DNA from: a virus
Virus record (IMG/VR): IMGVR_UViG_3300042453_003743
Location: 32,001-96,000 of that record
Direction: 5' to 3' (one strand)
DNA: 64,000 bases
The notes under the pieces are model-generated. The model saw only the letters and a program-made list of their open reading frames with translations. It searched no databases and was not told the DNA's origin. The position numbers were made by a program, and so were the translations under genes. Below are positions 37,701 through 62,206 of this stretch, in pieces. Position 1 is the first letter of the stretch. Every line of letters begins with the position of its first letter.

Positions 37701-38585
37701 TGGTGTTCCATTTGGATCAAGCTCATAGCAAATTTCATCTCTAGAACAATAGGATCTTAAACATCTATCGGGATTCTTACACGGATAATCTGGATCTTCT
37801 TCTTCTTCTTCGCCACCCCCACCTAAAATAGGTCCCCCACTATCTGGATCACAAGTATCACCGGACAAACTGTTTGGTACGGCATATTTAAATCTATACG
37901 GCCACGGGCCTCTCGGCATTTTTGCAAAACTTTGATTGCATTCACTAAACCCTAATAAATCAACAAACGCATAACATTCTGTCAATTCTTCCCAAGTAAT
38001 TTTTTCATTTCCACCCACGTGGTAAGAACCAACAGCATCTGGATGTGCTCTTAAATTTTTTGTTTTTCCATTTACATCAACATCTATAACTGTTTGATAT
38101 GACGATCCATTAAATTTTTCAATTTTTAAATTAAAAAGTATATCAAAAAACGAATCACTATCGTTTTCGATATTTGTCATATTAATACCATTAAACCAAC
38201 ATGGATAAATTTCTCCATAATAGTCGGCTGTTCCCCAAGCATATCTTTTTTGATTCAACGCTTCAGATGGTGTTCTAAAATTTACATACGTATCTGGATT
38301 TTTTACATTATTGCATGGCCAACAAGAATTTTCATCATAAGTTCCATATCCAATTGCTGTTGCTAATGTTCCGTCTTGAGAACATATAGTGTAAGTCATC
38401 ACGTGACCTACACTCGGTATTTCAGTTGTCAGTGTTCCAATTGGATTCCAATTTGGTTGCGCACACTGTTCTAAATTTCCCTCATTTGCAAAATAATCAT
38501 TTTGGTTGTACCAGTTGTACCCACTAAAATCATGGTCACACCAACCTTCTTTTTCTACATCACAACAACACGCTTTTTTAGGCAT
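34728..38585 (-). CDS. Large Cys-rich protein with CCC N-terminus and G-x-T repeats (putative fibre/adhesin)
   Basis: 1285 aa, MPKKACCC, dense Cys clusters, TGTTGNTGNTGSTGSTGPTGSTG; late promoter TATAAATA near 38604-38611. Confidence 0.7.
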   Translation of the reverse strand: MPKKACCCDVEKEGWCDHDFSGYNWYNQNDYFANEGNLEQCAQPNWNPIGTLTTEIPSVGHVMTYTICSQDGTLATAIGYGTYDENSCWPCNNVKNPDTYVNFRTPSEALNQKRYAWGTADYYGEIYPCWFNGINMTNIENDSDSFFDILFNLKIEKFNGSSYQTVIDVDVNGKTKNLRAHPDAVGSYHVGGNEKITWEELTECYAFVDLLGFSECNQSFAKMPRGPWPYRFKYAVPNSLSGDTCDPDSGGPILGGGGEEEEEDPDYPCKNPDRCLRSYCSRDEICYELDPNGTPYGWEDVPKACGKLSNYETDDSKRKFFCWWDPANRYTTPEWDVSDQSGSGAPDRKFSIHVVVPTKFFRASGDIPLDYSFGEGVGIYGDFCRPTYSEQGRSFGEWSFGMDCEAVSGEIEALEAAGFEWSGGPQDDGVWINKTPTNALRVLFTLDHSDLDQGKVWRVFRDWDVTVNNLEKKFNAGTPQEKKFRISLKQKLVETHFASLGCDCPSGYRTRTTGTTGNTGNTGSTGSTGPTGSTGCLEAHYPCATGGTGSTGSTGSSGRYERILPSSCDDCVTGCKILTEEGYCADPYPTDPFAPCMTNGYGGKISFAERGPIVLDVQVKTEEMNCIICGCNPALTACRCSGCSEKIGGTTKSQKGAKLIVHQANLPIPDAVNKCAAANRTDYNKPMFFEEDCTDGLTNKIIPYIGSGSCPYSIWFEDEQRFINPGNLISVIKEHGQRWLGAAGDIPVASGMRSSPMLVFTRGSRYRNVYIGVEVDELHTREARDRVQRGFEPHDCFDPLYGEMSCEWISGACAQRYDSESYRRDTYDRNVNAVFNESPFPGSSPKGLCVSLCDTCLCGEEDQECDDIDEPAPCGNSIPCPYDCFDKDLEGTTYVDQSGSIVTRTRPCYSEDVDEEGNGLGTYGGADPCCFDQDAPGCVPYCPECPGGCRCSKCRLENYKICEGSKEEQTCEGNPQMENQPGGDGSRHWTGFWTCGDNIIGENNRPGMSKFCEDCGNSDNIARGEVGSTCLEYTCAEAPLQYFGMDTERIYLASLGSNSTATYDCMDELCQEFHSCGCFGTELLEANQNSCQKYSGPAKDCMLQRVNPTGDCPDNCSYNYNFKICGPYGTPYGWGFQPTFINWRKKVCQERTLENKLQTPNFIESLEIKTESDYSNCESGQADRTSLKDWDKHIWWTQGTINCENPLGSNIPILNWADQVCSSECGQSSPLNPSLTIKLSKYQVHEGSAGEGFLPFDTTYQPNPNRNSFAINRSHIIINAKGPSK

Positions 38586-48908: not shown

Positions 48909-48938
48909 AATGGGTTCCCAATAAGGGACCCATTTTTA
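48909..48938. terminator. Terminator hairpin
   Basis: AATGGGTTCCC-AATAA-GGGACCCATTTTT. Confidence 0.6.
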
Positions 48939-48963
48939 TTTGGCTTCTGTTGAGTTTAATTTT

Positions 48964-49086
48964 TCAGATGACCGAACATCCACGGACCATCAAAAAACCC
49001 ACCACGAACGATCCTACAACGATTGCGACCACACACCAGTCGAGAGGGGTGGTTTCTTTCCAGAGGTTTTGAATAAAATTTTTCAT
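48964..49086 (-). CDS. Small single-pass membrane protein (not in ORF track)
   Basis: MKNFIQNLWKETTPLDWCVVAIVVGSFVVGFLMVRGCSVI, 40 aa, behind CTAAATA. Confidence 0.5.
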   Translation of the reverse strand: MKNFIQNLWKETTPLDWCVVAIVVGSFVVGFLMVRGCSVI

Positions 49087-49424
49087 TCAACTTATTTAGC
49101 CGTTTTCCGCCCGGAAAATTTTTAAGCCATCCCATGGTTTTTGAATAGGGGACCCATATTTCTATAAGTGCGGACAGGATACTGGGGGCTCGGAGAATAT
49201 TAGAGAAAATTAAAGAATATTAGAGGGGGGTGGGAGCTAGCCCGCCCAAATATTAATTTTTTTTAGGGGACCCATTTTACTGTTTGGACATGACCACCAA
49301 GTATATTTTACCACACCCCCCTCTGCTTGTCAAGGCCCCCTCCCCCCTTGACACTAGCCATCACCCGTGATACAATCAACTCGGTTGAGTTTCAAAACTC
49401 CATCGAAGTAAAGGGAAAACCCCC

Positions 49425-49763
49425 TTATGGGGTTTCCTTGCCCTCCTTTTCCTTGGCGATTCGCACCAACTGGGCCGCGTACTTCTTCATGATCTTGCGA
49501 GCGAAGATCATCTGCTTGGGGGACAGCGATCCGCGACGGATCACCTGTTCCGCGAGGCTGCTTGCAAAGGTCGCATCGACTCCGGTGAACCCGACGCCGT
49601 TGGTGTGCTTGGTGGCCGCGTCCCGCTGCTCGTCCTCCGTCTGCTTGTGGTAGATGGCGACCAGCCCACGGAGGAGCCAACGGTCGTCCGTGGCGATCTT
49701 CTCGCGCACGAACTCAACGGTGAGGGGGGCGGCAGGGGCGGGGGCGGTGGTGGTGCTGTTCAT
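49425..49763 (-). CDS. Conserved phage hypothetical protein (early, leaderless)
   Basis: IYHKQTEDEQ...NGVGFTGVDA...LSPKQ...KYAAQL; TTGACA-17-TACAAT-6-ATG. Confidence 0.85.
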   Translation of the reverse strand: MNSTTTAPAPAAPLTVEFVREKIATDDRWLLRGLVAIYHKQTEDEQRDAATKHTNGVGFTGVDATFASSLAEQVIRRGSLSPKQMIFARKIMKKYAAQLVRIAKEKEGKETP

Positions 49764-49794
49764 GCGTGTATTGTAGCACTACCCACCTACCATG

Positions 49795-50010
49795 TCAACC
49801 CCAGTCCTTTCTCATGGTGGGGTCGGCATAGGTTTCCTCGTAGCCTGCGGTGTACGCCTCCAGTTCCTCCGGGTCCGTCAGGGTGACTCGCTCTCCCTTG
49901 TAGGTGCCGTTCGGGTACTTGTGAGGGCTAGGCGCTCTCCCGTACCACGCATCGGCACAACCCCGGTCGTAGGGCGATCCGTGCCAGTTGGGGTAGGTCT
50001 TGGGGTTCAC
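49795..50010 (-). CDS. Conserved phage hypothetical protein
   Basis: GTG start; HGSPYDRGCADAWYGR...AYTAGYE. Confidence 0.75.
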   Translation of the reverse strand: MNPKTYPNWHGSPYDRGCADAWYGRAPSPHKYPNGTYKGERVTLTDPEELEAYTAGYEETYADPTMRKDWG

Positions 50011-50345
50011 GCCTGCCCCCTTTCGATGTGGATCACGCAGGAGAGAACATGCTCCCGGTGTTCGTCCCATTCCGGGAGACGCGACTCCCACTCGCTGTAC
50101 GGGGAAATCGCAATGATGTACTCCTCGTAGTAGTCATTGCAGGGCAGCACGGCCTCGGCTGCGGCAGCAGCCTGCTCGGCGGTTTCGGCCCCATGAACGA
50201 AGTAGTCGTGGCCCCCCTTGCACTTCCAGTACTGGGGGCACGCGCCCGTTCCGTCCCACGAATGAGCGCCGTAGTTCTCGCGCATCTGCGTGACAACGAC
50301 AAAGGCCGGGGCGGTGCGGGGAGTGACGTTGGTGGTGGTGTCCAT
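50007..50345 (-). CDS. Conserved T4-like hypothetical protein (early, leaderless)
   Basis: TQMRENYGAHSWDGTGACPQYWKCKGG; TTGACA-17-TATACT-6-ATG. Confidence 0.85.
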   Translation of the reverse strand: MDTTTNVTPRTAPAFVVVTQMRENYGAHSWDGTGACPQYWKCKGGHDYFVHGAETAEQAAAAAEAVLPCNDYYEEYIIAISPYSEWESRLPEWDEHREHVLSCVIHIERGQA

Positions 50346-50525
50346 GCACACAGTATAGCAAAGTGTCTCTGGGATGTCAACCCCCTACATGATAAGTCCG
50401 ATAACGGCCCACTTGACACCGGGGGAACCCATGTGGTACAATCTACTTGGTTGACGTTTCAGGCGCACACAAAATAATAAAAAACCCCCCGGCAACGCAC
50501 CGGGGGGCCAGCCCTCACGCTGTAG

Positions 50526-50774
50526 TTAGTCCCATTTCGATTCCCCCGTCGCTATGATGCGGTCCACCAGTTCGTCGGTGGTCATCTGCCAATCGGCAGC
50601 GAGGTCTTCCTGCTCAATGTAGAACCAGTCTGAGCCTTCCGCCTCTTCGCGGGAATCGTAGTAGTGGGCCATTTCCGTGGCACAGTCCTCGCACACATCA
50701 TCGAACGAATCGAGAATGAGAACGCCGCAGGCGCGGCACTGGGTGGGGTTGTCAGCCGGGGTGGTGTTGCACAT
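50526..50774 (-). CDS. Acidic Zn-ribbon protein (early, leaderless)
   Basis: CRAC...CEDC; TTGACA-17-TATACT-6-ATG; terminator at 50480-50507. Confidence 0.75.
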   Translation of the reverse strand: MCNTTPADNPTQCRACGVLILDSFDDVCEDCATEMAHYYDSREEAEGSDWFYIEQEDLAADWQMTTDELVDRIIATGESKWD

Positions 50775-50928
50775 GACCGTAGTATACACTAGCCCCTCTG
50801 CGGTGTCAAGAGGCTAGGTGAAGTTTTTACACCTACATGCAAAGTCCACCAAGTAGATTCTACCATGGCATGGGCAAAATGTCAACCCCCCACCCCCGGA
50901 GGGGCGAGGGGTTGATGCGGTATGCCGA

Positions 50929-51225
50929 TTACCGCATGGGGTTGACGATGATTCCTTCGACCGCTTCGATGCGCTCCTCCTTGCAGGAGCGCCAGTCCTG
51001 CACATTGAAGTCCCAGTAGCACACCATGTTCGGCGGCATCCTGCGGTTTGCGCCCTTCGCAAGCCGATCAGCGGGGATCAGCGTTTCGTCGGTGGTGCCG
51101 ATTGCGACACGCGGCGTACCATCCAACTTGCGGTAGACGAACCGAACGATGCCGACACGCATGGCCGTGCGGGCGTTGTACGAGGCTTCGGACTTGTGAC
51201 TGACGATGTTGACGAGTGGTGTCAT
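50929..51225 (-). CDS. WYL-like SH3 domain protein (early, leaderless)
   Basis: VRFVYRKLDGTPRVAIGT...YWDFNVQDWRSC; TTGACA-17-TATCAT-6-ATG. Confidence 0.8.
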   Translation of the reverse strand: MTPLVNIVSHKSEASYNARTAMRVGIVRFVYRKLDGTPRVAIGTTDETLIPADRLAKGANRRMPPNMVCYWDFNVQDWRSCKEERIEAVEGIIVNPMR

Positions 51226-51467
51226 GCCTGCATGATAGCACAAGCGTTCTAGCGTGTCAAGTGACTTCTGACTCTTTCTGCGGGGGCTAGACTTGACAAA
51301 GCGAAAGTGTTGTGGTACAATCTACTTGGTTGAATAAAATAAAAACTTGTTGTGAGTCCGATAACCAAGGGTGCGCCCATGCCCTTGACAGCGGTGGAGG
51401 GGTGTGGTAAACTCGGCGCATCGGGCCGTGTGGCCCTACTCACCACCTCTCTCTAGGAGAACGACAG

Positions 51468-51860
51468 ATGACCTGCACCACCCCCTGCCTCCCCGGTTTT
51501 GAGTCCATCCTCGCCGCCTCCCCGGCCCCCGTCAACTCCGCCGCCACGACCCGTCGCCGTGGCCGCTCCGGCCCCCGGGGCGTCCTCTACACCGTCTCCA
51601 CGGAGGAGTCGGCCCTCGGGCCTTGGGTCCACCGTGAGATCAGCGCGCAAGTGTGGCCCAACGGACGGGGCCAGCGTGTTGCCCGCATTCGGATGCAGGC
51701 CAACGCCTCGGACAGGATCGGCTACTCCTTCGGCATGGTCACCGTGACCGACACCAACGGTACGCCCATCTGCATCGGCATGGACAAGGAGCAGATGCGG
51801 TCGGTCGGTGCCGCCCTCCTCGCCGCAGCGAACTCCGCCCGCGCCAAGTGGCGCAAGTGA
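51468..51860 (+). CDS. Hypothetical early protein
   Basis: AGGAGA Shine-Dalgarno; promoter TTGACA(51385)-17-TAAACT. Confidence 0.75.
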   Translation: MTCTTPCLPGFESILAASPAPVNSAATTRRRGRSGPRGVLYTVSTEESALGPWVHREISAQVWPNGRGQRVARIRMQANASDRIGYSFGMVTVTDTNGTPICIGMDKEQMRSVGAALLAAANSARAKWRK

Positions 51861-51935
51861 GGACCGGACAGAGAGGGGAGGGGTCGCATGACCCCTCCCC
51901 TTGACACTCGCACCACCATCGGATACAATACGCCC

Positions 51936-52118
51936 ATGAAGAACAGCACCACCGAACTCCGCTTCCTCTCCGCCATGCTCTGGCTCTCATCCTTCGCGGG
52001 CACCGCGCTCTGCGTGAACTGGGCGATGGATGGGCACTACCTCCTGTCCGCTTTCACAGGTCTACTGGTTCTGGGCTGCGGATGCCTGATCGCCCATGTT
52101 CACTACCTGCGGAAATAA
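51936..52118 (+). CDS. Small two-helix membrane protein (leaderless)
   Basis: Two hydrophobic segments; TTGACA(51901)-17-TACAAT-6-ATG. Confidence 0.75.
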   Translation: MKNSTTELRFLSAMLWLSSFAGTALCVNWAMDGHYLLSAFTGLLVLGCGCLIAHVHYLRK

Positions 52119-52168
52119 ATCTTCCGGCATCACTTGACACTCGCACCACCAACGGATACAATACACCC

Positions 52169-52447
52169 ATGAAGCGCACCACCACCAAAGACCTGATTGA
52201 TTCCATCCGCACCCTCAACCGCGAGTTGGGCTTCCCCGATGATGGAGGCACCGCCCTGGGCCTCGGTTCGATTCCCGGTTCGTTCTGCCTCTCGGGAGCC
52301 TACGGAGGCTGGCAGATTCAGCGATTCGTCGGACAGGGTTTGGAGTCCGTCACCACCGGATACCGCCCAAAGCGGCAAGTCCGGGAACTAGTAGAGGCAA
52401 TGGTGCAGGGTGTGCGCCTGCACCGCGCCTACCAGATGATCGCATAA
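52169..52447 (+). CDS. Hypothetical early protein (leaderless)
   Basis: LSGAYGGWQI motif; TTGACA(52134)-17-TACAAT-6-ATG. Confidence 0.8.
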   Translation: MKRTTTKDLIDSIRTLNRELGFPDDGGTALGLGSIPGSFCLSGAYGGWQIQRFVGQGLESVTTGYRPKRQVRELVEAMVQGVRLHRAYQMIA

Positions 52448-52560
52448 CGAGGTGGTGCTCGTCAACCGAAGAGGCTAACGCCCTGCCCCGGATGTTCCGG
52501 GGCTAGGTTTTTTTATTGGCAGTTGACACCTGCAAACGCCCGTGGTACAATCTACTTGGT
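52445..52560 (+). repeat. Hairpin-terminator-promoter module, copy 1
   Basis: TAACGAGGTGGTGCTCGTCAACCGAA...CCCTGCCCCG..CGGGGCTAGGTTTTTTTATTGGCA.TTGACA...CTACTTGGT; repeated at 53840. Confidence 0.9.
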
Positions 52561-52713
52561 TCACAAATGTATTGTTATTCTCTTTTTCCCACAGCCGACC
52601 AAGTATATTCTACCATGAGGGTATTGCGGTGTCAAGTCGAGTTATCGGTCTGTGTATAACTTTGATTGTTGGGGTCACTTGACACCGTGGCGCGGGTGTG
52701 GTATCATCATTGC

Positions 52714-53277
52714 ATGAGCACCACTCACACCAACCGTTTCGAAACCGTTCGCACCCTTGCCATCGGCAACTTCATCAACCTACTGACCCGCGCCACGGAG
52801 GCCGATCACCAAGCCGCCAGCGCATGGTACAATGACGCGCAGGCGTTCGCTAACTCGCTCCGCCCCATCACCGGATGGAACCTTGAGGTGGCCGCTAGCG
52901 TCGTGTCAGCCTTCTCGCCCCGCGTCACTTGGGGCCACAACAAGGCGAAGGCGCTCCAGTATGCGCAGGGCATCACGCCGAAGGGGCTGGGCTCCCATGT
53001 CGCTGCGGCGGATCGCTGCGTGGCGGACGGGTTCAACGGGCTGCGCGGGCTCAAGACGAACGCATTCGCCCGTGCCATTGCCGGGGACACGCAGGCCGTC
53101 GTGGTGGATGTGTGGATGTGCCGTGCTGCGGGGCTCGGGAAGGACGCTCCGAACAAGACGGAATATCGGGCAATCGCGGACGCGATCCGCACCATCGCAT
53201 CCACGCGGGTCGTGAACATGGAACCCGCCACGCTTCAGGCTCTCCTGTGGATCATCATCCGGGGGAAGGCGGAGTAA
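52714..53277 (+). CDS. HhH-glycosylase-like phage protein (DUF7178-type motifs), early
   Basis: AWYNDA, SAFSPRVTWGHN, KTNAFARAI, VVVDVW, PATLQALLW; leaderless promoter at 52679. Confidence 0.8.
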   Translation: MSTTHTNRFETVRTLAIGNFINLLTRATEADHQAASAWYNDAQAFANSLRPITGWNLEVAASVVSAFSPRVTWGHNKAKALQYAQGITPKGLGSHVAAADRCVADGFNGLRGLKTNAFARAIAGDTQAVVVDVWMCRAAGLGKDAPNKTEYRAIADAIRTIASTRVVNMEPATLQALLWIIIRGKAE

Positions 53278-53324
53278 TCCGCCACCCCCTTGACAGGCCG
53301 CACCCCATAGAGTATACTACACCC

Positions 53325-53570
53325 ATGACCAACACCACCACCGAAACCCCCATCGACTACAGAACCGACCCCCGTTACAAGTACGCCTTCGCATACGGAG
53401 TCCTCTCGCATTGCATGACCGTCGTTGCCGAACTGGTCGAACGGTCCAAGCGTGAGGGGGAGATGATCGACCCCAACAACCCGGACCTGAAGTGGGCCAT
53501 CACCCAGTTCAAGATCGCAGACGACAATCTCCACACAGACTCCCAGCACACAAGGTACAATACGCCATGA
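53325..53570 (+). CDS. Hypothetical early protein (leaderless)
   Basis: MTNTTTETP...YAFAYGVL; TTGACA(53290)-17-TATACT-6-ATG. Confidence 0.75.
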   Translation: MTNTTTETPIDYRTDPRYKYAFAYGVLSHCMTVVAELVERSKREGEMIDPNNPDLKWAITQFKIADDNLHTDSQHTRYNTP

Positions 53571-53842
53571 GCACCACCAACTGGCACAAGCATTTCGGTT
53601 CCGCTATGGACTCGGATCGAACCGTGGAATGCGTTCAATGCGGTTCTTCCATGATCGGAGATGGCCCTGCACAGCCCGTCATCTGCACCGAATGCTACAA
53701 CCACTCGGGCATCATCCTGCGGGATCGGGTGATCTGCATGGAGTGTGCCTCTGAAGTTCTGGAACACGGAACGCTAGTCACCCCCGACACTCACCCCGAT
53801 GGGTTCACTTGCGCGGATTGTGGGGAAACTTCAACGATCTAA
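53567..53842 (+). CDS. Multi-CxxC Zn-finger protein
   Basis: CVQC, CTEC, CMEC, CADC; ATGA overlap with the upstream gene. Confidence 0.75.
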   Translation: MSTTNWHKHFGSAMDSDRTVECVQCGSSMIGDGPAQPVICTECYNHSGIILRDRVICMECASEVLEHGTLVTPDTHPDGFTCADCGETSTI

Positions 53843-53955
53843 CGAGGTGGTGCTCGTCAACCGAAAAGGATTCGTCCCTGCCCCGATTCGTTCGGGGCTA
53901 GGTTTTTTTATTGGCACTTGACATCGGACAGGATGTATGGTAGAATCTACTTGGT
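53840..53955 (+). repeat. Hairpin-terminator-promoter module, copy 2
   Basis: Near-identical to 52445-52560, with changes confined to loops and the promoter spacer. Confidence 0.9.
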
Positions 53956-54028
53956 GAACAAAACAAAAATGATTTCTCTCATCACGCACCCCCTTGACAC
54001 CCGTGGCCGTTCGTGATACAATGGGTCC

Positions 54029-54394
54029 ATGACACCACTCAACCACATCCCCAACCGAACCGATTCCTGCATCATGCTCATCGAGTCCATCCGCATGGCT
54101 CACTCCGACCTCTCATGCACGAAGGCCAACCCGGAAGAAACCAATGCGGCCCTCGCTTTCTGCGAGATCGCCGTCAGCATCCCCCCGTCGTGGTTCACGC
54201 ATGAGGAGCGCATCATGGTCAAGGAAACCATCGACACGCTCTACGGTGACGCTCTGAAGTTCATCATCGACCTCGACGGAGGACACGTTTCCTTCATCAA
54301 CAAGTGCAACAACCTCTGCCACGGGCGTTCGTTGGAGTCGTTCGTGGATGTGATGATGCGGCAGCACATGGCGGAGTTTGGATCGGTAGCCTGA
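54029..54394 (+). CDS. Hypothetical early protein (leaderless)
   Basis: TTGACA(53994)-17-TACAAT-6-ATG; GC hairpin follows at 54402-54433. Confidence 0.8.
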   Translation: MTPLNHIPNRTDSCIMLIESIRMAHSDLSCTKANPEETNAALAFCEIAVSIPPSWFTHEERIMVKETIDTLYGDALKFIIDLDGGHVSFINKCNNLCHGRSLESFVDVMMRQHMAEFGSVA

Positions 54395-54610
54395 AGGTGA
54401 AGTCCACCCCCCGGCCAACGCCGGGGGGTGGACGGATAGTAGTCACTACTGATAGTAGACCCCCGATAATATTTCAATAATATTTGGGACTTGACACGCC
54501 GGGATGGTCATGATACAATCGTCTTGGACGACATTCAAAACAGAGTCCGATAATAAAAAAGATGGACGAGATGGCTTGACACGGACGGGGTGGCATGGTA
54601 GAATGCCAAC

Positions 54611-54841
54611 ATGAACAACCCCAACAACTACAACGACGACGACGCTGAATACTCCGACCTCATGCCCTACGACGATGCGTTCACCGACGAGGACTTCGTT
54701 CAGGAACTCATTGACGAGGGATACAGCGAGGATGAGGCCCGCCGCATGGTTGGCGAGTACGACGCCAACGAATACTACGGCATTGACGAGGACAACGACC
54801 GGGATGTTCCCGACTTCGTTGACGATGGAGACTTCGAATGA
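54611..54841 (+). CDS. Very acidic small protein (leaderless)
   Basis: About 29 Asp/Glu in 76 aa; TTGACA(54576)-17-TAGAAT-6-ATG. Confidence 0.8.
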   Translation: MNNPNNYNDDDAEYSDLMPYDDAFTDEDFVQELIDEGYSEDEARRMVGEYDANEYYGIDEDNDRDVPDFVDDGDFE

Positions 54842-55212
54842 ATGTAAGAATCATTCGGAGCGACAGGCCGACCACCAGCAAAAGGTGGGTCAAAAGACGA
54901 ATCAACGAAACCCTTCGGGGAATCTTCTTTGCATCAGCCGTCATCAGCACGAAGGACTCTGGAAAGAGTTGTAATGGAATGTCAGTAGACATTCACCCTT
55001 TCCCGACCGGAACGATCATTTTCGATGTCCAACTGGGAACGGACTGGACCCGAAAGGGAGTTGAAGCATTCTTGCGCTACATGGAGCAGTCGAACGGTGT
55101 AGTGAGCGTGACCTTGACAACCACAACCGACTCTGATACAATCCACCCATGCGAAAGCCACCCAACCACCGACCCGACCGACCGACCACTTGCGACTTCA
55201 GCGACTTGCTGA
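54838..55212 (+). CDS. Hypothetical protein
   Basis: ATGA overlap with the upstream gene; its 3' end overlaps the next promoter and gene. Confidence 0.5.
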   Translation: MNVRIIRSDRPTTSKRWVKRRINETLRGIFFASAVISTKDSGKSCNGMSVDIHPFPTGTIIFDVQLGTDWTRKGVEAFLRYMEQSNGVVSVTLTTTTDSDTIHPCESHPTTDPTDRPLATSATC

Positions 55213-55391
55213 ACGAGGTCGCCAAGTTCACCGAAACCAACCCCCTGTGGTTTGAGAACCCGGAGGACTTGGCGCGAATGGCAAGAGCCTACGGCATCAT
55301 CACGATGATGAGTGGACCGGATTCATGCACGGAGGATGAGTGCGAATACATCCTCAACCTTCACCGCACCCTTCAGGAGAACCACAAGTGA
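55149..55391 (+). CDS. Hypothetical early protein (leaderless)
   Basis: TTGACA(55114)-17-TACAAT-6-ATG. Confidence 0.75.
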   Translation: MRKPPNHRPDRPTTCDFSDLLNEVAKFTETNPLWFENPEDLARMARAYGIITMMSGPDSCTEDECEYILNLHRTLQENHK

Positions 55392-55756
55392 ACCCCACCA
55401 ACAAGTTTGACGGATTCTTCAGCGGGAACGGAGAAATCCCGCAGAATGTGGAGATGCGACCCCCCACGGTGCCGATGATGGTTCACACCCTCATCGTCCT
55501 GACCGGAACCACGCCGGAGTGGTACAAGAACGAGAAGAACCGCATCATTGCCTGCTCGTTCTTGGAGGCCATTGCCGATGGGGTCAAGGAGTTCAGGGAC
55601 GGGAAGGAGAAGGATTCTCCGATCTCCCTCTCCGAAGCCGCGTTCCTGATGATGACCTCCGAGATTCTGTTCGCCACGCAGCAGTTCGCCTCCGACGAGG
55701 AGCGCGAGCGTTGGCCTGACCGACCGGACACCGTGAGCGACGAGGACGAGGAGTGA
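55388..55756 (+). CDS. Hypothetical protein
   Basis: GTGA overlap start with upstream AGGAG. Confidence 0.7.
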   Translation: MNPTNKFDGFFSGNGEIPQNVEMRPPTVPMMVHTLIVLTGTTPEWYKNEKNRIIACSFLEAIADGVKEFRDGKEKDSPISLSEAAFLMMTSEILFATQQFASDEERERWPDRPDTVSDEDEE

Positions 55757-55794
55757 CTTGACAACCCGCGCCCATCGGGTACAATGGGCATCCC

Positions 55795-55867
55795 GCCTCT
55801 GTAGCGCAGTTGGTAGCGCAGTTGACTTTTAATCAATTGGTCGTGGGTTCGAACCCCACCGGAGGCA
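55795..55867 (+). tRNA. tRNA-Lys(UUU)
   Basis: Acceptor GCCTCTG/CGGAGGC, anticodon loop CTTTTAA, GGTTCGAAC T-arm; own promoter at 55758; CCA not encoded. Confidence 0.95.
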
Positions 55868-55869
55868 TT

Positions 55870-56136
55870 ATGAAAGACAACGAAATCCTAATTCACGCAC
55901 TCACGGAGTCAGACAAACTGCAAATAATTTTTGCAGAACTCATGGAGTTTTGGTTGGAGGGAAAGGAACCTCCCACTTGGTTGGTTGATCAGTACTACGA
56001 CCAACTGGAAGAAGTTCAGGTGGCTTTCAGCGCCGACAAGTTGCATGAGGTCGTGGCGCAGAAGAACCGAGACTTCTACGACGACCTTCAAAATAAACTT
56101 GAAGGCTTGCTTGACAACACCCCGGACTTGTTCTAG
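55870..56136 (+). CDS. Hypothetical acidic protein between tRNAs
   Basis: MKDNEILI...; the tRNA 3' end GGAGG serves as a Shine-Dalgarno. Confidence 0.65.
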   Translation: MKDNEILIHALTESDKLQIIFAELMEFWLEGKEPPTWLVDQYYDQLEEVQVAFSADKLHEVVAQKNRDFYDDLQNKLEGLLDNTPDLF

Positions 56137-56147
56137 AATGGGGTCAC

Positions 56148-56220
56148 GGCACGGTAGACCAACGGCAGAGTCAATTGACTCAAAATCAATAAAGTGTGGG
56201 TTCGAATCCCACCCGTGCTA
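56148..56220 (+). tRNA. tRNA-Leu(CAA), short variable loop
   Basis: Acceptor GGCACGG/CCGTGCT, stem ATTGA/TCAAT, loop CTCAAAA, GGTTCGAATCC, A73; promoter at 56111. Confidence 0.88.
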
Positions 56221-56325
56221 CTAAAATAGAGGCGGATCTTCTTCAAGACCGTCCAAGTTGAGAAGGTGAAAGTCTGACGAGTCCGATTCTTTGTAATCGT
56301 AGTGCAGTAAAGTAGCCTTCGACTT

Positions 56326-56399
56326 GTTCCCGTAGCCCAGTTGGATAGAGCAGCCGCCTTCTAAGCGGCAGGTCGCTGGTTCGAATCCAGCCGGGAACG
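56326..56399 (+). tRNA. tRNA-Arg(UCU)
   Basis: Acceptor GTTCCCG/CGGGAAC, stem GCCGC/GCGGC, loop CTTCTAA, GGTTCGAATCC. Confidence 0.96.
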
Positions 56400-56541
56400 C
56401 TTGACAAGAAAGGAAACGGTGCTACAATGCTGTACATGAACACCCCAAAGAGTATATTATAAGTTTTGGCGGTGGTTCAAACAAACCGCATAGAGGCAAC
56501 CTACGGTTGCACGGTTCGCAGAGCCGTACAACTCTGCATAC

Positions 56542-56617
56542 GGAAGGGTGGCTGAATCGTAGTTAGAGCGCATGCCTTATAAGCGTGAATATGTGGGTGC
56601 AACTCCCGCCCCTTCCA
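56542..56617 (+). tRNA. tRNA-Ile(UAU)
   Basis: Acceptor GGAAGGG/CCCTTCC, stem CATGC/GCGTG, loop CTTATAA, variant T-loop TGCAACT, A73. Confidence 0.85.
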
Positions 56618-56640
56618 CTTCCCCCAACCAAAGGAACGAG

Positions 56641-56847
56641 ATGGATCTCAACAAGATCAGAGAGTGCTTGACAACGTTGGAAGACTTCGCCGCCATTCTT
56701 GATGATGGCATGGCTCCTGTCACGCAGGAGGAGATCGAAATCATGGCAGAGGAACTTCCCAAGATCATCTCCACTCTCAAGAAGGAAACCGATGTCAGCA
56801 CGGGCACCGATATGTACGTCAAGTACAGCGGCTTCTGTGACGGCTAA
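56641..56847 (+). CDS. Hypothetical protein
   Basis: MDLNKIRE..., AAGGAA Shine-Dalgarno. Confidence 0.7.
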   Translation: MDLNKIRECLTTLEDFAAILDDGMAPVTQEEIEIMAEELPKIISTLKKETDVSTGTDMYVKYSGFCDG

Positions 56848-56898
56848 AAGTTTTTGTTTTTTGCTTGACAACCCCCAACCACAAGGTACAATAGACAC

Positions 56899-57180
56899 AT
56901 GAACTTCGACTTCAACAACATCGCCCTGATCGCCCTCTCGCTCTTTGCCGGATACTTCGGCCTCGCCTACATGAAGGCCCGCTTTGAGGACAGGATGCGC
57001 GCCTACACGCAGCGCATGGATGATCTTCAGACTTGGTTCGACCGTGAGAACGAGCGCATCATGGATCGGATTCGGACTCTTGATGTCCGCGTGAATGATC
57101 TCCGTTTCAACTACGAGACTCACGCCGAATGCAAGAGCAAGTACCCGGCGGAGAAGAACTACTACAACACGGAAGTCTAA
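56899..57180 (+). CDS. Membrane-anchored coiled-coil protein (leaderless)
   Basis: N-terminal hydrophobic helix, then heptads; TTGACA(56865)-16-TACAAT-6-ATG. Confidence 0.8.
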   Translation: MNFDFNNIALIALSLFAGYFGLAYMKARFEDRMRAYTQRMDDLQTWFDRENERIMDRIRTLDVRVNDLRFNYETHAECKSKYPAEKNYYNTEV

Positions 57181-57206
57181 ATCCGCTCTAGACTTCCTCT
57201 CATACC

Positions 57207-57237
57207 AGAGAGCCCCGCAATGGGCTCTCTGTTTTTA
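57207..57237 (+). terminator. Intrinsic terminator
   Basis: CAGAGAGCCC-CGCAAT-GGGCTCTCTG-TTTTT. Confidence 0.85.
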
Positions 57238-57423
57238 TTTTGACAGTAATCTACTGATAGTAGTTTTGGATCGGATAGTAGTCCGATAACTAGGCGGCAC
57301 TCGGCTTGACAAGTGGAAGGTGATGTGGTACAATCATATTGGTGGACAATATAAAAATGGATATTTCAAAATATTTGCGATAGGGTACTTGACACCCCAA
57401 AAAGATTGTGGTACAATGTTCGC

Positions 57424-58695
57424 ATGAACAGCAACATCGACCGCCGCAAGCAGAAGTTCCTCAAGGCTCTCACCGACCTGTACGGAGTCCCATCCTCCAT
57501 CGGTGAGGCACGGTACACCCGTGAGCAGTGCATCAACGCCTTCCACAACACTTACAAGGTGTCGCCCAACGACAACTACAGCACCCTCCCGGCTTGGATC
57601 GTGCAAGACAAGTCCCGTCGCCTTGGCCGGGGACTCTACAACATTCCCGAAACGGTTGTCCTGACCGACGCCATCGAACCCGAAAATGTTTACGAAACTT
57701 CAGGACAGGATTTGACACCACAGGAAACTTGTGGTAGAATGGAAACCATGAACAGCAGCAACTACAACCTCGTCATGCCGTCCAACGATGTTTCCCTCGT
57801 CCCCGTCAAGAACGAAACTTTCGTTCCGTGGGGACACTACGAGGACATCAATGCCATCCTCGCCTCCAAGCAGTTCGCTCCGGTCTACATCACGGGTCTG
57901 TCGGGCAACGGCAAGACCACGATGATCGAACAGGTCTGCGCGAACACCGGACGGGAGTGCATCCGTGTCAACATCACCGCCGAAACCGACGAGGATGACC
58001 TGATCGGTGGGTTCCGCCTCATCAACGGCGAAACCAAGTTCGTGTTCGGTGGAGTCGTGCAGGCCATGCAGCGTGGCGCAATCCTCCTGTTGGACGAGAT
58101 CGACTTGGGAACGGAGCGCATGATGTGCCTTCAGCCCGTGCTTGAGGGCAAGGGTGTCTACATCAAGAAGATCGGAATGTTCGTCAAGCCCGCTCCCGGC
58201 TTCAATGTGGTCGCCACCGCCAACACGAAGGGCAAGGGCGAGTCTGATCGGTTCGTCGGCACCCGCTGCATGAACGAGGCGTTCCTTGACCGCTTCTCCT
58301 ACTGGTTTGAGCAGGAGTACGCTGATAGGGTGGTGGAGGCCCGCATCATCATCCGCAAGATGAAGGCGTATGGCAAGGAGGACAAGGACTTCGCGCAGTA
58401 CCTCGTCAAGTGGGCGGAAACGATCCGCTTGGGCTTCAAGGAGGGCGGCTTGGATGACATCATCACGACCCGTCGCTTGGAGGAGGTCTGCAAGGCGTTC
58501 GCCATCTTCAACGACAAGGAGAAGGCGATCAAGTTGACTCTCACCCGGTTCGACCCGGCTACGCAGGAGGCGTTCTACAACCTCTACACCAAGATCGACC
58601 CGACCATCCTTCCGCCTGTGGACGGGATGGACAAGGAGAAGCAGGCCGTTCCCGCTCCCTCCCCGTCTGACACCAACTACGCAATCAACGCCTAA
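57424..58695 (+). CDS. MoxR/CobS-type AAA+ ATPase
   Basis: GLSGNGKT, ETDEDDLIGG, LLLDEID, ATANTKGKG, NEAFLDRF, ITTRRL; matches the 'cobS' family of T4-like phages. Confidence 0.93.
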   Translation: MNSNIDRRKQKFLKALTDLYGVPSSIGEARYTREQCINAFHNTYKVSPNDNYSTLPAWIVQDKSRRLGRGLYNIPETVVLTDAIEPENVYETSGQDLTPQETCGRMETMNSSNYNLVMPSNDVSLVPVKNETFVPWGHYEDINAILASKQFAPVYITGLSGNGKTTMIEQVCANTGRECIRVNITAETDEDDLIGGFRLINGETKFVFGGVVQAMQRGAILLLDEIDLGTERMMCLQPVLEGKGVYIKKIGMFVKPAPGFNVVATANTKGKGESDRFVGTRCMNEAFLDRFSYWFEQEYADRVVEARIIIRKMKAYGKEDKDFAQYLVKWAETIRLGFKEGGLDDIITTRRLEEVCKAFAIFNDKEKAIKLTLTRFDPATQEAFYNLYTKIDPTILPPVDGMDKEKQAVPAPSPSDTNYAINA

Positions 58696-58712
58696 CAAAA
58701 AGGAAAAAGAAA

Positions 58713-58937
58713 ATGCCTTACATGAACAAGCGCAATCGTTTCGTCGCAGCCGCCAAGCAGTACGCGGATGCCAACCTCAACGGCGACTACAGCAACTTCA
58801 AGAAGTCTGACCTCCTCACGGTCGCACAGTCGATCAACATGAAGGGGACTCCGACTTGGGTTGTCAAGGAGTACGCAAGCGCGGTGAGCCGTGGCGTCTA
58901 CGACCTGACGAGCCTGATCGCTCCTGTGACTGTCTGA
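58713..58937 (+). CDS. Small protein resembling the N-terminal domain of the AAA+ ATPase
   Basis: PTWVV.......RGVYDL versus PAWIV.......RGLYNI in the ATPase; AAGGA Shine-Dalgarno. Confidence 0.75.
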   Translation: MPYMNKRNRFVAAAKQYADANLNGDYSNFKKSDLLTVAQSINMKGTPTWVVKEYASAVSRGVYDLTSLIAPVTV

Positions 58938-59011
58938 TGCTGTTCTGATGTGGGGTGGGGCAATCGGCCCCACCCCTTGACAAGACGCACCACCTGTGGT
59001 AGAATACCGAC

Positions 59012-61252
59012 ATGAACACTTCTCTCTCCATCTTCGCCCGCGCTCTCGCAACCGAAAACCTCTCGTTCTCGTTCGATGCCAACGCAGACACCGCATCGTT
59101 CGACACCAAGAGCCGTCACCTCGTCATGCCCGTGTGGGATGTCTCCGACACCCTTCAGACCATGCTTGTCGCCCATGAGATCAGCCACGCCCTGTGGACT
59201 CCCCATGAGCGCAGTCAGGAGTTGCTGACGCAGGCGGAGAAGGACGGCTACTGCATCAAACTCCTCCACCACATTGCGAATGTCATTGAGGATGTCCGCA
59301 TTGAGAAGTTGATGAAGGCCAAGTACCCCGGCACCCGCAGAGACTTCTTCTTGGGCTACAAGGAGATCGTGGATGCCGACCTGTTCAAGTTCAAGTCGAT
59401 GGACTTGAAGAACACCAACATCATCAACCGACTCAACCTCCACTTCAAGTGGGGTGTCCCCGGCTTCCTGCCCATCGACCTCAACGCGGACGAGAACGAG
59501 ATCGCCATGTTGGTCGATGCCGTTCAGACCTTCGATCAGGGGTTTGAGTTGGCAAAGCACCTCTACAAGCATCCTTCCATGAAGGATATGCGCGAGAAGT
59601 ACGAGGCGCAGGCTGAAAAGCAGAAGAAGTCCTCCGGCACGGACGGGGATCAGGATGATGACGGCACGATGTCGCAGACTGATCTTTCGGACAGCAATCT
59701 TGGCATGGTCGATATGCCCTGTGAGTTCGGTCGCAAGAACGGCGAGAAGTTCCACGCCACGACCCTGACCATCAGCCCGGTGGTCAAGATCGAAAACAAC
59801 ATCATCACCACCGACGAGATGCTTGAGTCCTACGAGGACGCGATCATCGGAAACCCGTATGGGAATCCCACGCTTGACTTGACCAACTACCGCTCCTTCG
59901 TCAAGGAGTCCGATGCGTTCGTTCGCCAGTTGGTCGCGCAGTTTGAGCGTCGCAAGGCTGCGGACGAGATTCGCCGTGAGCGGCCCAAGCAGACCGGGAT
60001 GCTGAACCTTGACCGCCTCCACCAGTTCCGCACCCACGATGACATCTTCCTGTCCAAGATCATCAAGCAGGACGGCAAGAATCACGGCATCGTGTTCTTG
60101 ATCGACTTCTCCGGGTCTATGACCACCGTGCTTGACCATTGCATCCTTCAGGTGTTCCAGTTGGTTTGGTTCTGCGAGAAGGCCAAGATTCCGTTTGAGG
60201 TGTTCGGCTTCACCAACATGAACCTGATCGGCAACCGTGGCAAGGAGGAGGATGAGCGGCACCGCAAGTTCTGCCGCCAACACTCCATTGAGGAGCGGTA
60301 TGTTCCGCTGTACCCCACCGAAACGCAGAACCCTCGCCCGGACAGCATTGTGTGCGGCAACACCCGGCTCATTTCGTTGGCTTCGTCGGCTGATTCGCCT
60401 GCCAAGCGTGAGCGTCTGCTTGCCTTTATCTACGAGTCCTCCGTGCAGCGTACTCGCAGTCAGGTGTTCTCGCTTGGTGGTACTCCGACCGTGGAGGCCA
60501 TGATCCTCACCACTCAATACATGAAGAAGTGGGTGCAGGACAACAATGTGCAGATTCCGACCCTGATGCTCGTCACCGATGGACAGCCCAACGGTGTCTC
60601 GTTGGACCCGACCTCGCCCATGTATTCGGATGTGCCGTATCAGATTCGGGAGAATATGTCCCTCATGGTCCGCAACGACATCCTTCAGACCATGACCCGC
60701 ATCGACAACAAGGAACACGACGGCATGGGCTTGGGCAATGTGGTGGTGTCCGTGATGCTTGATGATCTTCGTCAGACGATGAACGCGAGGACTGTCGGTA
60801 TGTATGTGGGTGGTCGCACCTTCAACGATTCGCTCTACCGTGGCTTCTGCCTTCTGCCGCAAGACCATGAGCAGATGGACAGGATCATTGAGCAGGCACG
60901 AAAGAATGGAGATTGGAGAGCGACGATAAGCCTCCGCGAAAGCCCCCGCTACGAGATGGCTCAACAGCAGTACATGAGTGAGGGGTGCATCATCCTCCCC
61001 ACCGTGAGCAACCCCGGCTACGATGCCTTCTTCCTCATCAAGACTCCCAAGATCGTCAAGGACGAGGAGGCGATTGTGGAGAGCGGAACCTTCGTCAAGG
61101 TGAAGAACACCTTCGTCAAGACGATGGGCAAGAGAGCCGGGAGCCGTGTGTTCCTCTCCAAGTATGTTGACATCGTGGCGGGTCAGCCTGTGCCAAAGAA
61201 CGGGGGCAAGTTGTACGACCTCCCCGCCCACAACGGACTTGAAAGAAAGTAA
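59012..61252 (+). CDS. HExxH metallopeptidase-like + VWA domain protein (CobT-like MoxR partner)
   Basis: HEISHALWT, NVIEDVRIEK, MIDAS DFSGSM, GGTP, VTDG; leaderless promoter at 58977. Confidence 0.9.
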   Translation: MNTSLSIFARALATENLSFSFDANADTASFDTKSRHLVMPVWDVSDTLQTMLVAHEISHALWTPHERSQELLTQAEKDGYCIKLLHHIANVIEDVRIEKLMKAKYPGTRRDFFLGYKEIVDADLFKFKSMDLKNTNIINRLNLHFKWGVPGFLPIDLNADENEIAMLVDAVQTFDQGFELAKHLYKHPSMKDMREKYEAQAEKQKKSSGTDGDQDDDGTMSQTDLSDSNLGMVDMPCEFGRKNGEKFHATTLTISPVVKIENNIITTDEMLESYEDAIIGNPYGNPTLDLTNYRSFVKESDAFVRQLVAQFERRKAADEIRRERPKQTGMLNLDRLHQFRTHDDIFLSKIIKQDGKNHGIVFLIDFSGSMTTVLDHCILQVFQLVWFCEKAKIPFEVFGFTNMNLIGNRGKEEDERHRKFCRQHSIEERYVPLYPTETQNPRPDSIVCGNTRLISLASSADSPAKRERLLAFIYESSVQRTRSQVFSLGGTPTVEAMILTTQYMKKWVQDNNVQIPTLMLVTDGQPNGVSLDPTSPMYSDVPYQIRENMSLMVRNDILQTMTRIDNKEHDGMGLGNVVVSVMLDDLRQTMNARTVGMYVGGRTFNDSLYRGFCLLPQDHEQMDRIIEQARKNGDWRATISLRESPRYEMAQQQYMSEGCIILPTVSNPGYDAFFLIKTPKIVKDEEAIVESGTFVKVKNTFVKTMGKRAGSRVFLSKYVDIVAGQPVPKNGGKLYDLPAHNGLERK

Positions 61253-61266
61253 GTAATATTAGGTAC

Positions 61267-61308
61267 GCCCCCACCAGGAAGGAGAGAGCCTGGTGGGGGT
61301 TTTCTTTT
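61267..61308 (+). terminator. Intrinsic terminator after the VWA gene
   Basis: CCCCCACCAGG-loop-CCTGGTGGGGG-TTTTCTTTT. Confidence 0.85.
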
Positions 61309-61309
61309 G

Positions 61310-62206
61310 TCAAGAACAAAAATTATTATTTCCAGAAAATAATAATTTTGATAGTAGTACTGATAGTACTCGGATCGGATAGTAGTTATTTGGACGCACC
61401 AAGTATATTGTACCATGCCGGATTCCCGGTGTCAAGCCCCCCTGTTATCGTCTTATCGGACTCCCCTTGACAAACTTCCGACCCCGTGGTACAATCGTAT
61501 TGGTGGACAAAATAATTGAATAGTTTATCAGACTTAGAACACAGGCCGGTGCTCAGAGGGTTATCGGACTTGTATTCAATTGCTTGACAACCCCTATATC
61601 TGGTGTATAGTTACCAGACTGTTCATGCGACTGATAACCCCCCAGCCCCCTGTGAGTACTGATCGTTATGGGGCGGGGGGTTATCGGGCGTTATTCTACC
61701 TGATTATTACCGGTCTGTCCCTCCTGGTTATATACTGGGCGGTTATCGGACTTGGAAAAATTATTCAGAATAATAACGGACAGGATTCAGAGGGACAGGA
61801 TCCAGGAAAGACGGCTCACTACTATCAGGGCGGGGTCCTCCAGATGCTCAGATACGCCAGGTCCCTCCCCACAGATTAAAAATAATAATTTCCGGACAGG
61901 ATTGAAACGGACATCCAGGAAACACCTGGACAGGATTCAAATTGTCGGACAGGATTGAGAAATTGTTAAAATTTCTCAAAATTTGTCAAATTTCTTTGAA
62001 AATTTGTAATTATTTGCTTGACAGCCTATAATGCCCTATAAGGCGTCGGTTTAAAAGAGGGCTCGGAGGGGTCTTTAAGGACTTGGAGGGGCTTGGAGGG
62101 CATTGTAAGACGATTAAAGGGGTGTTAGAGGGTGGGTCTGTAACTCCAAATTTCTCAAATATTCTTCAATATTCTTTACCCCACTCACTCCCACTCTCCC
62201 CCACCT
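61310..62206. other. Non-coding repeat-rich region, candidate replication origin
   Basis: Five GGACAGGAT repeats, several GTTATCGG boxes, divergent promoters, phased AAATTT tract at about 61960-62010. Confidence 0.5.

Follow-up and report, generated by a model that had tools for sequence, protein, structure and literature searches.

In a stretch of 64,000 nt from a lake phage, we find twelve nearly perfect bacterial-type promoters that share a conserved sequence directly behind the -10 box, stand at the boundaries between small genes and mostly have no gene of their own. The stretch, hereafter called the window, comprises bases 32001-96000 of IMGVR_UViG_3300042453_003743, a single virus record of 137,341 bp with 38.5% G+C. 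These class-2 promoters, so named to set them apart from the gene promoters among which they lie, exist as a family, the sequence behind their -10 box (the tail) is under selection, their positions follow rules, and their distribution among related phages is patchy. We tentatively regard them as genuine sigma-70/sigma-A-type early promoters of a distinct class, non-coding and starting with G, which are embedded in modules resembling the promoter-early stem-loop (PeSL) cassettes and may act in cis by interference or insulation, with the tail as a class-specific core-promoter element; our confidence in this reading as a whole stays clearly below even. That the promoters fire, where they start, and every functional consequence considered below we infer from the sequence.

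By its proteins, the phage is an uncultured freshwater T4-like myovirus, since its major capsid protein is 52-54% identical to counterparts in T4-like cyanophages, its portal, terminase and helicase have matches in the PHROG families one would expect, and a protein with a von Willebrand A (VWA) domain resembles a ‘peptidase’ of T4-like cyanophages and of pelagiphage HTVC008M. Fourteen DNA runs labelled as lake, freshwater or aquatic metagenomes contain 62-94% of the window's sampled words. The genome is AT-rich around a GC-rich island at 49.2-61.5 kb (51-62% G+C in 1-kb bins), which contains small genes without known function. Promoters accumulate in this island: the pattern TTGACA-N16-18-TANAAT has 25 perfect matches in the window where 0.36 are expected, none of 100 shuffles attained 25, and 25 of the 29 matches in the whole genome of 137,341 bp fall into the 12-kb island. 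Most island promoters belong to leaderless one-gene cassettes, in which an ATG lies 6-7 nt past the -10 box with an open frame behind it, as in the promoter at 53994..54031(+) with its arrangement TTGACA-17-TACAAT-N6-ATG. By this rule, 14 leaderless-gene promoters entered our alignment, and two further island promoters drive tRNAs.

The class-2 promoters are recognizable by what follows the -10 box. The eleven TTGACA-N17/18-TANAAT elements that the first-pass annotation of the window had grouped together are all found at their places, with exact coordinates on the plus strand, whereas on the minus strand TTGACA begins at 49333, 50885, 52635 and 61435 and not at 49328, 50880, 52630 and 61430. 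All eleven carry (C/A)TACTTGGT or a close variant past the -10 box, without an ATG, and the tails read as annotated: five copies have CTACTTGGT, three have ATACTTGGT, and CGTCTTGGA, CATATTGGT and CGTATTGGT are found in one copy each. Under the wider rule NNN-C/A-T-Y-G-G, 49348(+) with its tail CAACTCGGT is added to the class as a twelfth member. When -10 box and tail are combined in the pattern TANAATNNNNTTGG, 12 matches are obtained against 1.51 expected, a number attained in 0 of 100 shuffles; eleven of these are the elements just described, and one at 17320(-) is unrelated. The five copies of CTACTTGGT in the genome all lie within class-2 promoters, and the tail, which has no dyad symmetry, was never found apart from a promoter. 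Every one of the twelve has the sigma-70/sigma-A features TTGACA, TAnAAT, a spacer of 16-18 bp, and the extra TG just upstream of the -10 box that makes an extended -10 element (TGn); counted by eye on the alignment, a TG one base before the -10 box is present in 12 of 12 class-2 but in 10 of 14 leaderless promoters. The further observations that none has an ATG at the start and that each is followed by an AT-rich tract agree with the sequence, as there is no ATG 5-8 nt past any of the -10 boxes and the 25 nt past the tail average 34% G+C and 39% A, compared with 56% G+C in the island. The pseudo-palindrome GTAGAATCTAC, which had also been noted, is present only in those copies that combine TAGAAT with CTAC and therefore is not a feature of the class. 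In a comparison with antiterminator loading sites of the lambda PR'-qut type, which have a -10-like pause element among the first transcribed bases, A/T-rich hexamers similar to a -10 box were seen past the tail in some copies only.

That selection acts on the discriminator and start region, as the first-pass annotation had suggested, is borne out by the comparison with relatives, which were found via the VWA protein and via the promoter motif itself. G001 (L023) and G002 (L022) are fragments that match the left half of the island at about 68-76% identity and are near-copies of each other, and they have class-2 promoters at the same places as the window. In an alignment of seven orthologous pairs from the window and G001, anchored at the -10 box, identity reaches 95% for the tail (60 of 63 cells) and likewise for the TGn element together with the -10 box; the tail thus is as constrained as the -10 box itself. 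The spacers of these seven pairs are only 49% identical (Fisher p = 1e-10 for tail versus spacer), and downstream identity amounts to 57% at +10 to +30 and 46% at +31 to +60, with 49333(-) as an exception, since about 50 nt downstream of it are kept in the G001 orthologue. By this comparison, the tail is not a recent duplication. In the more diverged G003 (L008/L270; about 75-82% identical in conserved genes), there are nine class-2 promoters with TGYCTCGGTGGAATAAT, and here the tail is TGYCTCGGT, i.e. TG(C/T)CTCGGTGGAATAATTTATTTA. Downstream of seven of these nine, a gene promoter of the same orientation follows at 73-82 bp, in six cases at 73-76 bp, and two of the nine stand at places orthologous to 57306 and 61467, so that the tandem layout of two promoter classes is kept in G003 despite the different tail. 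G004 has two class-2 promoters with YTTGG tails. Common to the lineages is C-T-Y-G-G-T at positions 4-9 past the -10 box, which would correspond to -3 to +3 given a start at position 7, the one that the leaderless promoters point to.

The first-pass annotation had named the presence of the tail at orthologous positions in related phages as one touchstone for its idea, and here the picture is divided: the tail does occur at orthologous sites in four related records, but no class-2 promoter was found in the records of nine other relatives (36-126 kb). On a VWA protein tree with 17 rows, the three labelled genomes require three gains or losses, and the class therefore is patchy, by loss or by exchange of island segments. 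No further record with several class-2 promoters appeared among the matches listed, neither for viral contigs searched with the general pattern nor for metagenome contigs searched with -10 box plus tail. A scan of genome contigs gave 37 single matches (loci L304-L340), mostly ordinary leadered promoters in metagenome-assembled genomes of Clostridia. There, TTGACA-N16-18-TAnAAT-(A/C)TACTTGGT stands before ordinary genes in several orthologous groups, e.g. before a gene encoding MFETIKKVIAD..., which shows that a plain promoter can work with the tail sequence; as a start motif, it may be favourable in general. Two matches in other phyla, L305 and L331, have no protein in common with the phage, so that no clue to the host can be taken from these contigs.

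The second line of evidence is placement. The distances given for the five tandem arrangements (76, 92, 76, 85 and 83 bp), for the convergent pair (112 bp) and for the divergent pair (32 bp) all proved correct. In five records, whose counts are not independent because G001 and G002 are near-copies, 24 of 40 class-2 promoters have a co-oriented promoter at most 250 bp downstream, and in 13 of these 24 it lies at 73-79 bp, which is about the length of DNA under one open complex (roughly -55 to +20). The remaining ones are placed back-to-back at 14-16, 20, 30-37 or 44 bp, or convergently at 112 bp. In the window, nine of the twelve are, as judged by eye, no more than about 110 bp away from a hairpin at a gene end, five following the hairpin and four facing it, and the other three are in divergent pairs at the centre or the edges of the island; seven of the twelve have a co-oriented promoter and gene downstream. 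As class-2 promoters stand at gene boundaries, they probably control the neighbouring genes. Part of them belong to composite modules: at 52445..52567(+) and again at 53840..53962(+), a stop codon, a conserved 3' element, a terminator, a T-run and a class-2 promoter follow each other, the two copies being identical at 97 of 123 positions without gaps, and the second copy is 88% identical to the modules in G001 and G002. The relative L001 has the same 3' element and hairpin, followed by a boundary of the type CTACTATC-hairpin-GATAGTAG and no class-2 promoter, and at this site the class-2 promoter takes the place of that boundary in the window lineage.

The predicted transcripts bear no signature at the RNA level. 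The twelve predicted 70-nt transcripts have fold z-scores between -2.0 and +2.45 and no common fold, no shared open reading frame (ORF) was seen in them by inspection, and in an Rfam search only four tRNAs passed, with nothing at the promoters. A conserved sequence or structure, as would be expected of a small RNA besides a defined 3' end, was not found, with downstream conservation at 46-57% except for 49333(-), which makes a specific small RNA or peptide an unlikely product. A leaderless GUG mini-ORF was considered and rejected, as the fourth base varies: GTG occupies positions 8-10 in six of the twelve window copies, and the remainder have GTT, GTC or GAC. Pairing of a GGUGG 5' seed with CCACC-rich starts of leaderless mRNAs was likewise dropped, because only GGU is invariant. 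In case of the leaderless partner genes, the ATG lies 6-7 nt past their own -10 box and there is no Shine-Dalgarno (SD) sequence, so that a transcript started upstream would contain an internal AUG without SD and should be poorly translated, the exception being 51293(+) with its SD-bearing gene 51468. Four lake RNA libraries, each containing 7-9% of the sampled words, were compared with 49000-62200; these are assembled contigs, which show neither starts nor strand and possibly contain DNA, and the pieces listed fall mostly into coding parts; one contig, X18 (50755-50991), spans the class-2 promoter 50885(-) and the gene promoter 50809(-), and uncovered parts carry no information. The AT-rich tract was also considered as an UP element, i.e. 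an AT-rich upstream promoter element, of the downstream promoter, relative to which it occupies about -50 to -75, mostly upstream of the place usual for such elements.

Taken together, the following mechanism can be envisaged. Class-2 promoters combine a consensus -35, a TGn extended -10, a near-consensus -10 box and a class-specific discriminator and start (C-T-Y | G-G-T), and they would start at a G about 7 nt past the -10 box, a position derived from that of the ATG in the leaderless class, whereas the gene promoters would start at the A of the ATG. The RNA would begin with GGU and run into an A/U-rich stretch without a conserved ORF or fold. The promoters would belong to composite boundary modules of PeSL type, made up of terminator and promoter and situated between leaderless one-gene cassettes, and the act of transcription may be their only product. 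From a class-2 promoter that lies upstream of a leaderless promoter by about one polymerase footprint (73-79 bp), polymerases would run across the latter, and the resulting message would be untranslatable from its then internal, SD-less AUG; a class-2 promoter that faces the 3' end of a gene would give rise to antisense transcription. By occlusion, collision or antisense effects, the neighbouring cassette could be damped, timed or insulated, and the tail would fix the start site as well as the kinetics of initiation and escape, possibly being read by a lineage-specific factor. Transcriptional interference between promoters is known from pR-pL of phage 186, and to our knowledge no whole family of dedicated, sequence-marked interfering promoters has been described. 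A more specific version, which we hold to be doubtful, is a paired-promoter switch: a non-coding promoter starting with GTP would stand one footprint upstream of a leaderless promoter starting with ATP, its lineage-specific discriminator would be read by a factor of phage or host or set the sensitivity to nucleotide levels or the stringent response of the host, and the output of early genes would be gated by competition and occlusion between promoters and not by a classical repressor. If this were true, a virus would possess a dedicated family of ‘regulatory promoters’. The interference reading, if correct, would likewise mean a natural promoter family whose product is transcription and which is marked by its own start sequence; such a family would control a battery of leaderless genes in an abundant group of lake phages, and the PeSL concept, one of gene shuffling, would come to include regulation. 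Such modules would also offer a compact system, working with ordinary RNA polymerase, in which effects of discriminator and start, tandem promoters at footprint spacing and the insulation of leaderless genes from read-through could be studied. Even if the function were modest, the lineage-specific tail provides an evolutionary handle on a part of promoters that usually is ignored.

Several points weigh against interference as the role of these promoters. The occurrence of -10 box and tail at ordinary Clostridia promoters means that the tail may be merely a good start region, and the need of interference for so specific a start sequence is left unexplained. The positional argument is weak alone, because any promoter in so dense a region points at something, and it draws on near-copies in part, as mentioned for the five-record counts; moreover, 49333(-) and 61467(+) point outward from the island edges, and 51293(+) may do no more than drive the SD-bearing gene 51468. 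For this promoter, the earlier statement that no gene is adjacent does not hold strictly, as that gene follows 140 nt past the start. A lineage-specific tail suggests a trans-acting reader, but the comparison of protein presence and absence between genomes gave no clear candidate for it.

What other roles could the class-2 promoters have? They could be regulated promoters in which the tail is an operator or an open-complex recognition element, by which a phage or host factor switches the class as a block, e.g. in early shut-off. It speaks for such a role that the tail is of one kind within each genome and changes from lineage to lineage (CTACTTGGT in the window, G001 and G002, TGYCTCGGT in G003), as expected if it co-evolves with its reader, that it overlaps the start site, a usual place for repressors, and that further motifs are found in the same clusters (AGTCCGATAA with 7/7 and GATAGTAG with 7/11 copies). 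Against it, the tail is never seen away from a promoter and lacks dyad symmetry, no protein limited to class-bearing genomes was found, as the winged helix-turn-helix (wHTH) protein 32402-32638 and WYL_2 proteins occur elsewhere too, and uniformity within a genome could also result from gene conversion between repeated modules. We consider regulation as a block unlikely; it can be combined with interference. Somewhat less probable still is that class-2 promoters are second promoters of the downstream genes, so that each gene would have a leaderless mRNA (P1) and an mRNA with an A/U-rich 5' untranslated region (P2), the two being translated under different conditions. The seven window members with a co-oriented promoter and gene downstream fit this, as does 51293(+) upstream of a gene with a clear SD, and A/U-rich leaders can aid SD-independent initiation; the leaderless genes lack an SD before their ATG, though, four members are directed against the neighbouring gene, and ordinary SD sequences are in use elsewhere in the genome, e.g. 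at 58713 and 63519.

A role outside gene expression proper would be that of traps or decoys, i.e. promoters of maximal affinity and slow escape that hold host RNA polymerase or speed up sigma cycling for host takeover. The combination of consensus -35, TGn and near-consensus -10 in all twelve would suit this, T at +3 and G at +4 resemble slow-escaping E. coli start sequences (PMC5961368), and efficient firing of T4 early promoters has been proposed to free sigma for AsiA (PMC2988021). Yet twelve sites per genome would occupy few polymerases, and the strict placement at cassette boundaries would be unexplained. The A-rich transcribed region, moreover, looks more like that of T5-type promoters, which escape well, and altogether we regard traps as improbable. 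Similarly improbable is a role at the DNA level, in which the elements are homology patches of mobile PeSL-type promoter-terminator cassettes that serve recombination and shuffling of early genes, with transcripts as a by-product. The module indeed is duplicated, the class is patchy on the VWA tree, the segment between the convergent promoters aligns better inverted between window and G001 (45 vs 36), and crossovers in PeSLs have been mapped between -10 box and start codon (PMC2839356). An invariant patch of only about 18 bp, purifying selection exactly on -35, -10 and start-site positions, which argues for promoter function, and a tight spacing to the partner promoter, which recombination would not need, all speak against it. 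Promoters followed by an AT-rich unwinding element are known as replication origins in T4 (oriF/oriG) and as the primary origin of T7, and the class-2 promoters resemble them in being gene-less and followed by a tract with 34% G+C, in a T4-like phage, so that R-loops priming DNA synthesis could be imagined. Twelve copies within 12 kb on both strands would be unexpected for origins, and class-2 promoters differ from the known ones in being numerous, clustered and paired with gene promoters; the tract may be neutral, because non-coding DNA throughout the island is AT-rich, and the sequence past the tail is poorly conserved. An origin function is the most remote of the roles considered here.

Among known systems, PeSLs are closest to the class-2 elements. 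They are known from the T4-type phages RB49/phi1, T4/PST and KVP40/nt-1 (PMC2839356, PMC4122927), and the first-pass annotation had aptly named them as the nearest analogue, as the phage is T4-like and several class-2 promoters follow a terminator hairpin in a repeated module. Like PeSLs, the class-2 elements are intergenic among small, variable early genes of a T4-type phage, have near-perfect sigma-70 early promoters (as in RB49/phi1), and recur in composite modules that are patchy among relatives. A stem-loop beside the sigma-70-like promoter is found for part of the twelve: 52523, 53918 and 57306 come directly after the terminators 52485-52503, 53880-53898 and 57206-57231, and hairpins precede 50885(-) and 54491. 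Recombination between copies, which in PeSLs takes the form of mini-circles and of indels at the element, may be reflected in the duplicated module, the patchy distribution and the possible inversion. Unlike PeSLs, which end in the SD and start codon of the next gene, the class-2 elements (0 of 12 with such an end) finish in a conserved non-coding start, and mostly they precede a second, gene-bearing promoter or oppose a gene. They thus appear to be of PeSL type and yet a distinct variant, a non-coding promoter class paired with gene promoters.

T4 early (‘uber’) promoters have a consensus that extends beyond -35, TGn and -10 and whose role is described as unknown (PMC2988021). They are similar to class-2 promoters in being very strong promoters of host type with several recognition elements and extra conserved positions, but class-2 promoters have no UP elements, and their extra conservation is at discriminator and start and defines one of two classes, the other being leaderless. 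Promoter output can vary by orders of magnitude with the initial transcribed sequence, and in E. coli assays slow escape is marked by TG motifs and by a T at +3 (PMC5961368). Work on T5 N25 and its variants (PMC12464699) and on E. coli start-sequence libraries (PMC5961368) likewise concerns consensus-like promoters whose escape and output are determined by the first bases transcribed; it was done in the laboratory on single promoters, whereas class-2 promoters are a natural family that kept one start sequence over evolution. A strong promoter aimed across or against a neighbour at short range is a feature shared with tandem promoters of E. coli (PMC8830795) and with roadblock and occlusion systems (PMC6593788), and at class-2 promoters such interference is so far a deduction. 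In the literature searched, which did not extend to supplementary files, no description of this promoter class or of a two-class arrangement was found; for a marine T4-like phage, PMC9004378 only lists predicted early promoters.

In the following, the individual class-2 promoters are described from left to right and are named after the first base of TTGACA. At the left edge of the island, 49333(-) (49296..49333; TTGACA-17-TAAAAT, tail ATACTTGGT) points outward and stands back-to-back, at 15 bp, with 49348(+) (49348..49385; TACAAT, tail CAACTCGGT), which faces a terminator and the 3' end of gene 49425-49763(-). Downstream of 49333(-), left of the island, ATGGGTCCC(C/T)TA occurs three times on the minus strand in 48925-49270, and the first copy is kept in G001. 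The promoter 50413(+) (50413..50451) has an 18-bp spacer and the tail CTACTTGGT, is back-to-back at 33 bp with the leaderless promoter 50380(-), and faces the terminator 50483-50509 of gene 50526-50774(-). The same tail is found in 50885(-) (50848..50885), which is preceded by a hairpin and lies 76 bp upstream of the leaderless promoter 50809(-), and in 51293(+) (51293..51330), which is back-to-back at 33 bp with 51260(-) and 92 bp upstream of a weaker promoter at 51385, with the SD-bearing gene 51468-51860 downstream. Also with CTACTTGGT, 52523(+) (52523..52560) begins 8 nt past the T-run of terminator 52485-52503, converges with 52635(-) at 112 bp and has promoter 52679 at 156 bp downstream; its counterpart 52635(-) (52598..52635; tail ATACTTGGT) is directed towards the end of gene 52169-52447, with 52679(+) behind it, back-to-back at 44 bp. 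Between these two convergent promoters, the segment 52552-52606 aligns better to G001 (L023 9104-9158, 42000 region) as reverse complement (score 45 vs 36), and it may have been inverted between the inverted tails. Immediately past terminator 53880-53898, 53918(+) (53918..53955; tail CTACTTGGT) stands 76 bp upstream of the leaderless promoter 53994. A hairpin and GATAGTAG boxes precede 54491(+) (54491..54528), whose tail deviates (CGTCTTGGA) and which has the leaderless promoter 54576 at 85 bp downstream. The promoter 57306(+) (57306..57343; tail CATATTGGT), for which G003 has a class-2 promoter at the orthologous place, is preceded by terminator 57206-57231 and by GATAGTAG boxes and followed by promoter 57389 at 83 bp. 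At the right edge, 61435(-) (61398..61435; tail ATACTTGGT) faces the 3' end and terminator of the VWA gene 59012-61252 and is back-to-back at 32 bp with 61467(+) (61467..61504; tail CGTATTGGT), which is 117 bp upstream of promoter 61584 and has orthologous class-2 promoters after the VWA gene in G003 and G004.

As readers of the tail, the first-pass annotation had suggested the wHTH protein 32402-32638 and WYL-like proteins. Both suggestions are weakened, as the wHTH protein is present at 78-92% identity in four class-less relatives (full records) and WYL_2 proteins are found in relatives without the class as well. We compared 702 ORFs of the genome by tblastn with the records of eight relatives, in which absence is weak evidence because they are 13-70% complete; only gene 50007-50345(-) and the WYL_2 gene 50929-51225(-) were common to the window, G001 and G003 and missed in G005-G008, and in a profile search G005 and G007 had WYL_2 proteins above the cut-off. 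A search for an AsiA homologue gave no match in the phage but is uninformative, as the control genomes were equally silent. A protein of 1285 aa (34728-38585(-)), which belongs to no Pfam or PHROG family, occurs only in class-2 genomes: it is full-length in G001 and G002, has a 50-aa match near one G003 contig end and is absent from G005-G008. Possibly it is a host-range protein, and the promoter class would then be tied to a host.

Other motifs share the promoter clusters. All seven genome copies of AGTCCGATAA are situated in the promoter clusters of the island, at 50395, 51355, 54544, 57280, 61462(-), 61570(-) and 61752(-), some of them in the gap of about 32 bp between back-to-back promoters and others past class-2 start sites, and the motif looks like a putative factor-binding site. 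Of GATAGTAG, 7 of 11 boxes are in the island or at its right edge, with pairs at 54434-54458, 57254-57281 and 61350-61385 beside the class-2 promoters 54491, 57306 and 61435; the three co-oriented promoters 54491, 57306 and 61467 have deviant tails, and in relatives this 8-mer flanks hairpins. The 3' element of the duplicated module, TAACGAGGTGGTGCTCGT..CCGAA.AGG (52445-52475, 53840-53870 and L001 2815-2850), begins at the stop codons of two genes, before terminators, and contains GGTGGTGC, whose complement GCACCACC is found close to the 5' end of these same genes, the leaderless 52169 and 53567; this could reflect pairing between 5' and 3' ends, or chance.

At the right edge of the island, 800 bp of non-coding DNA (61260-62050) contain five copies of GGACAGGAT (61778-61947), TTATCGGACT repeats and promoter-like sites, and this region may be an iteron-like origin or a regulatory hub. 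Inside the GC-rich island, at 55795-56618, there are four tRNAs, Lys-UUU, Leu-CAA, Arg-UCU and Ile-UAU, all for AT-rich codons, two of which stand directly behind consensus promoters. Behind the promoter at 56401, a stretch containing ...ATTATATTATAAGTTTTGGCGGT... (56401-56541), which has no Rfam or ARAGORN assignment and precedes tRNA-Ile(UAU), recurs behind the equivalent promoter in the loci of ten relatives and may be a tRNA leader or a novel RNA.

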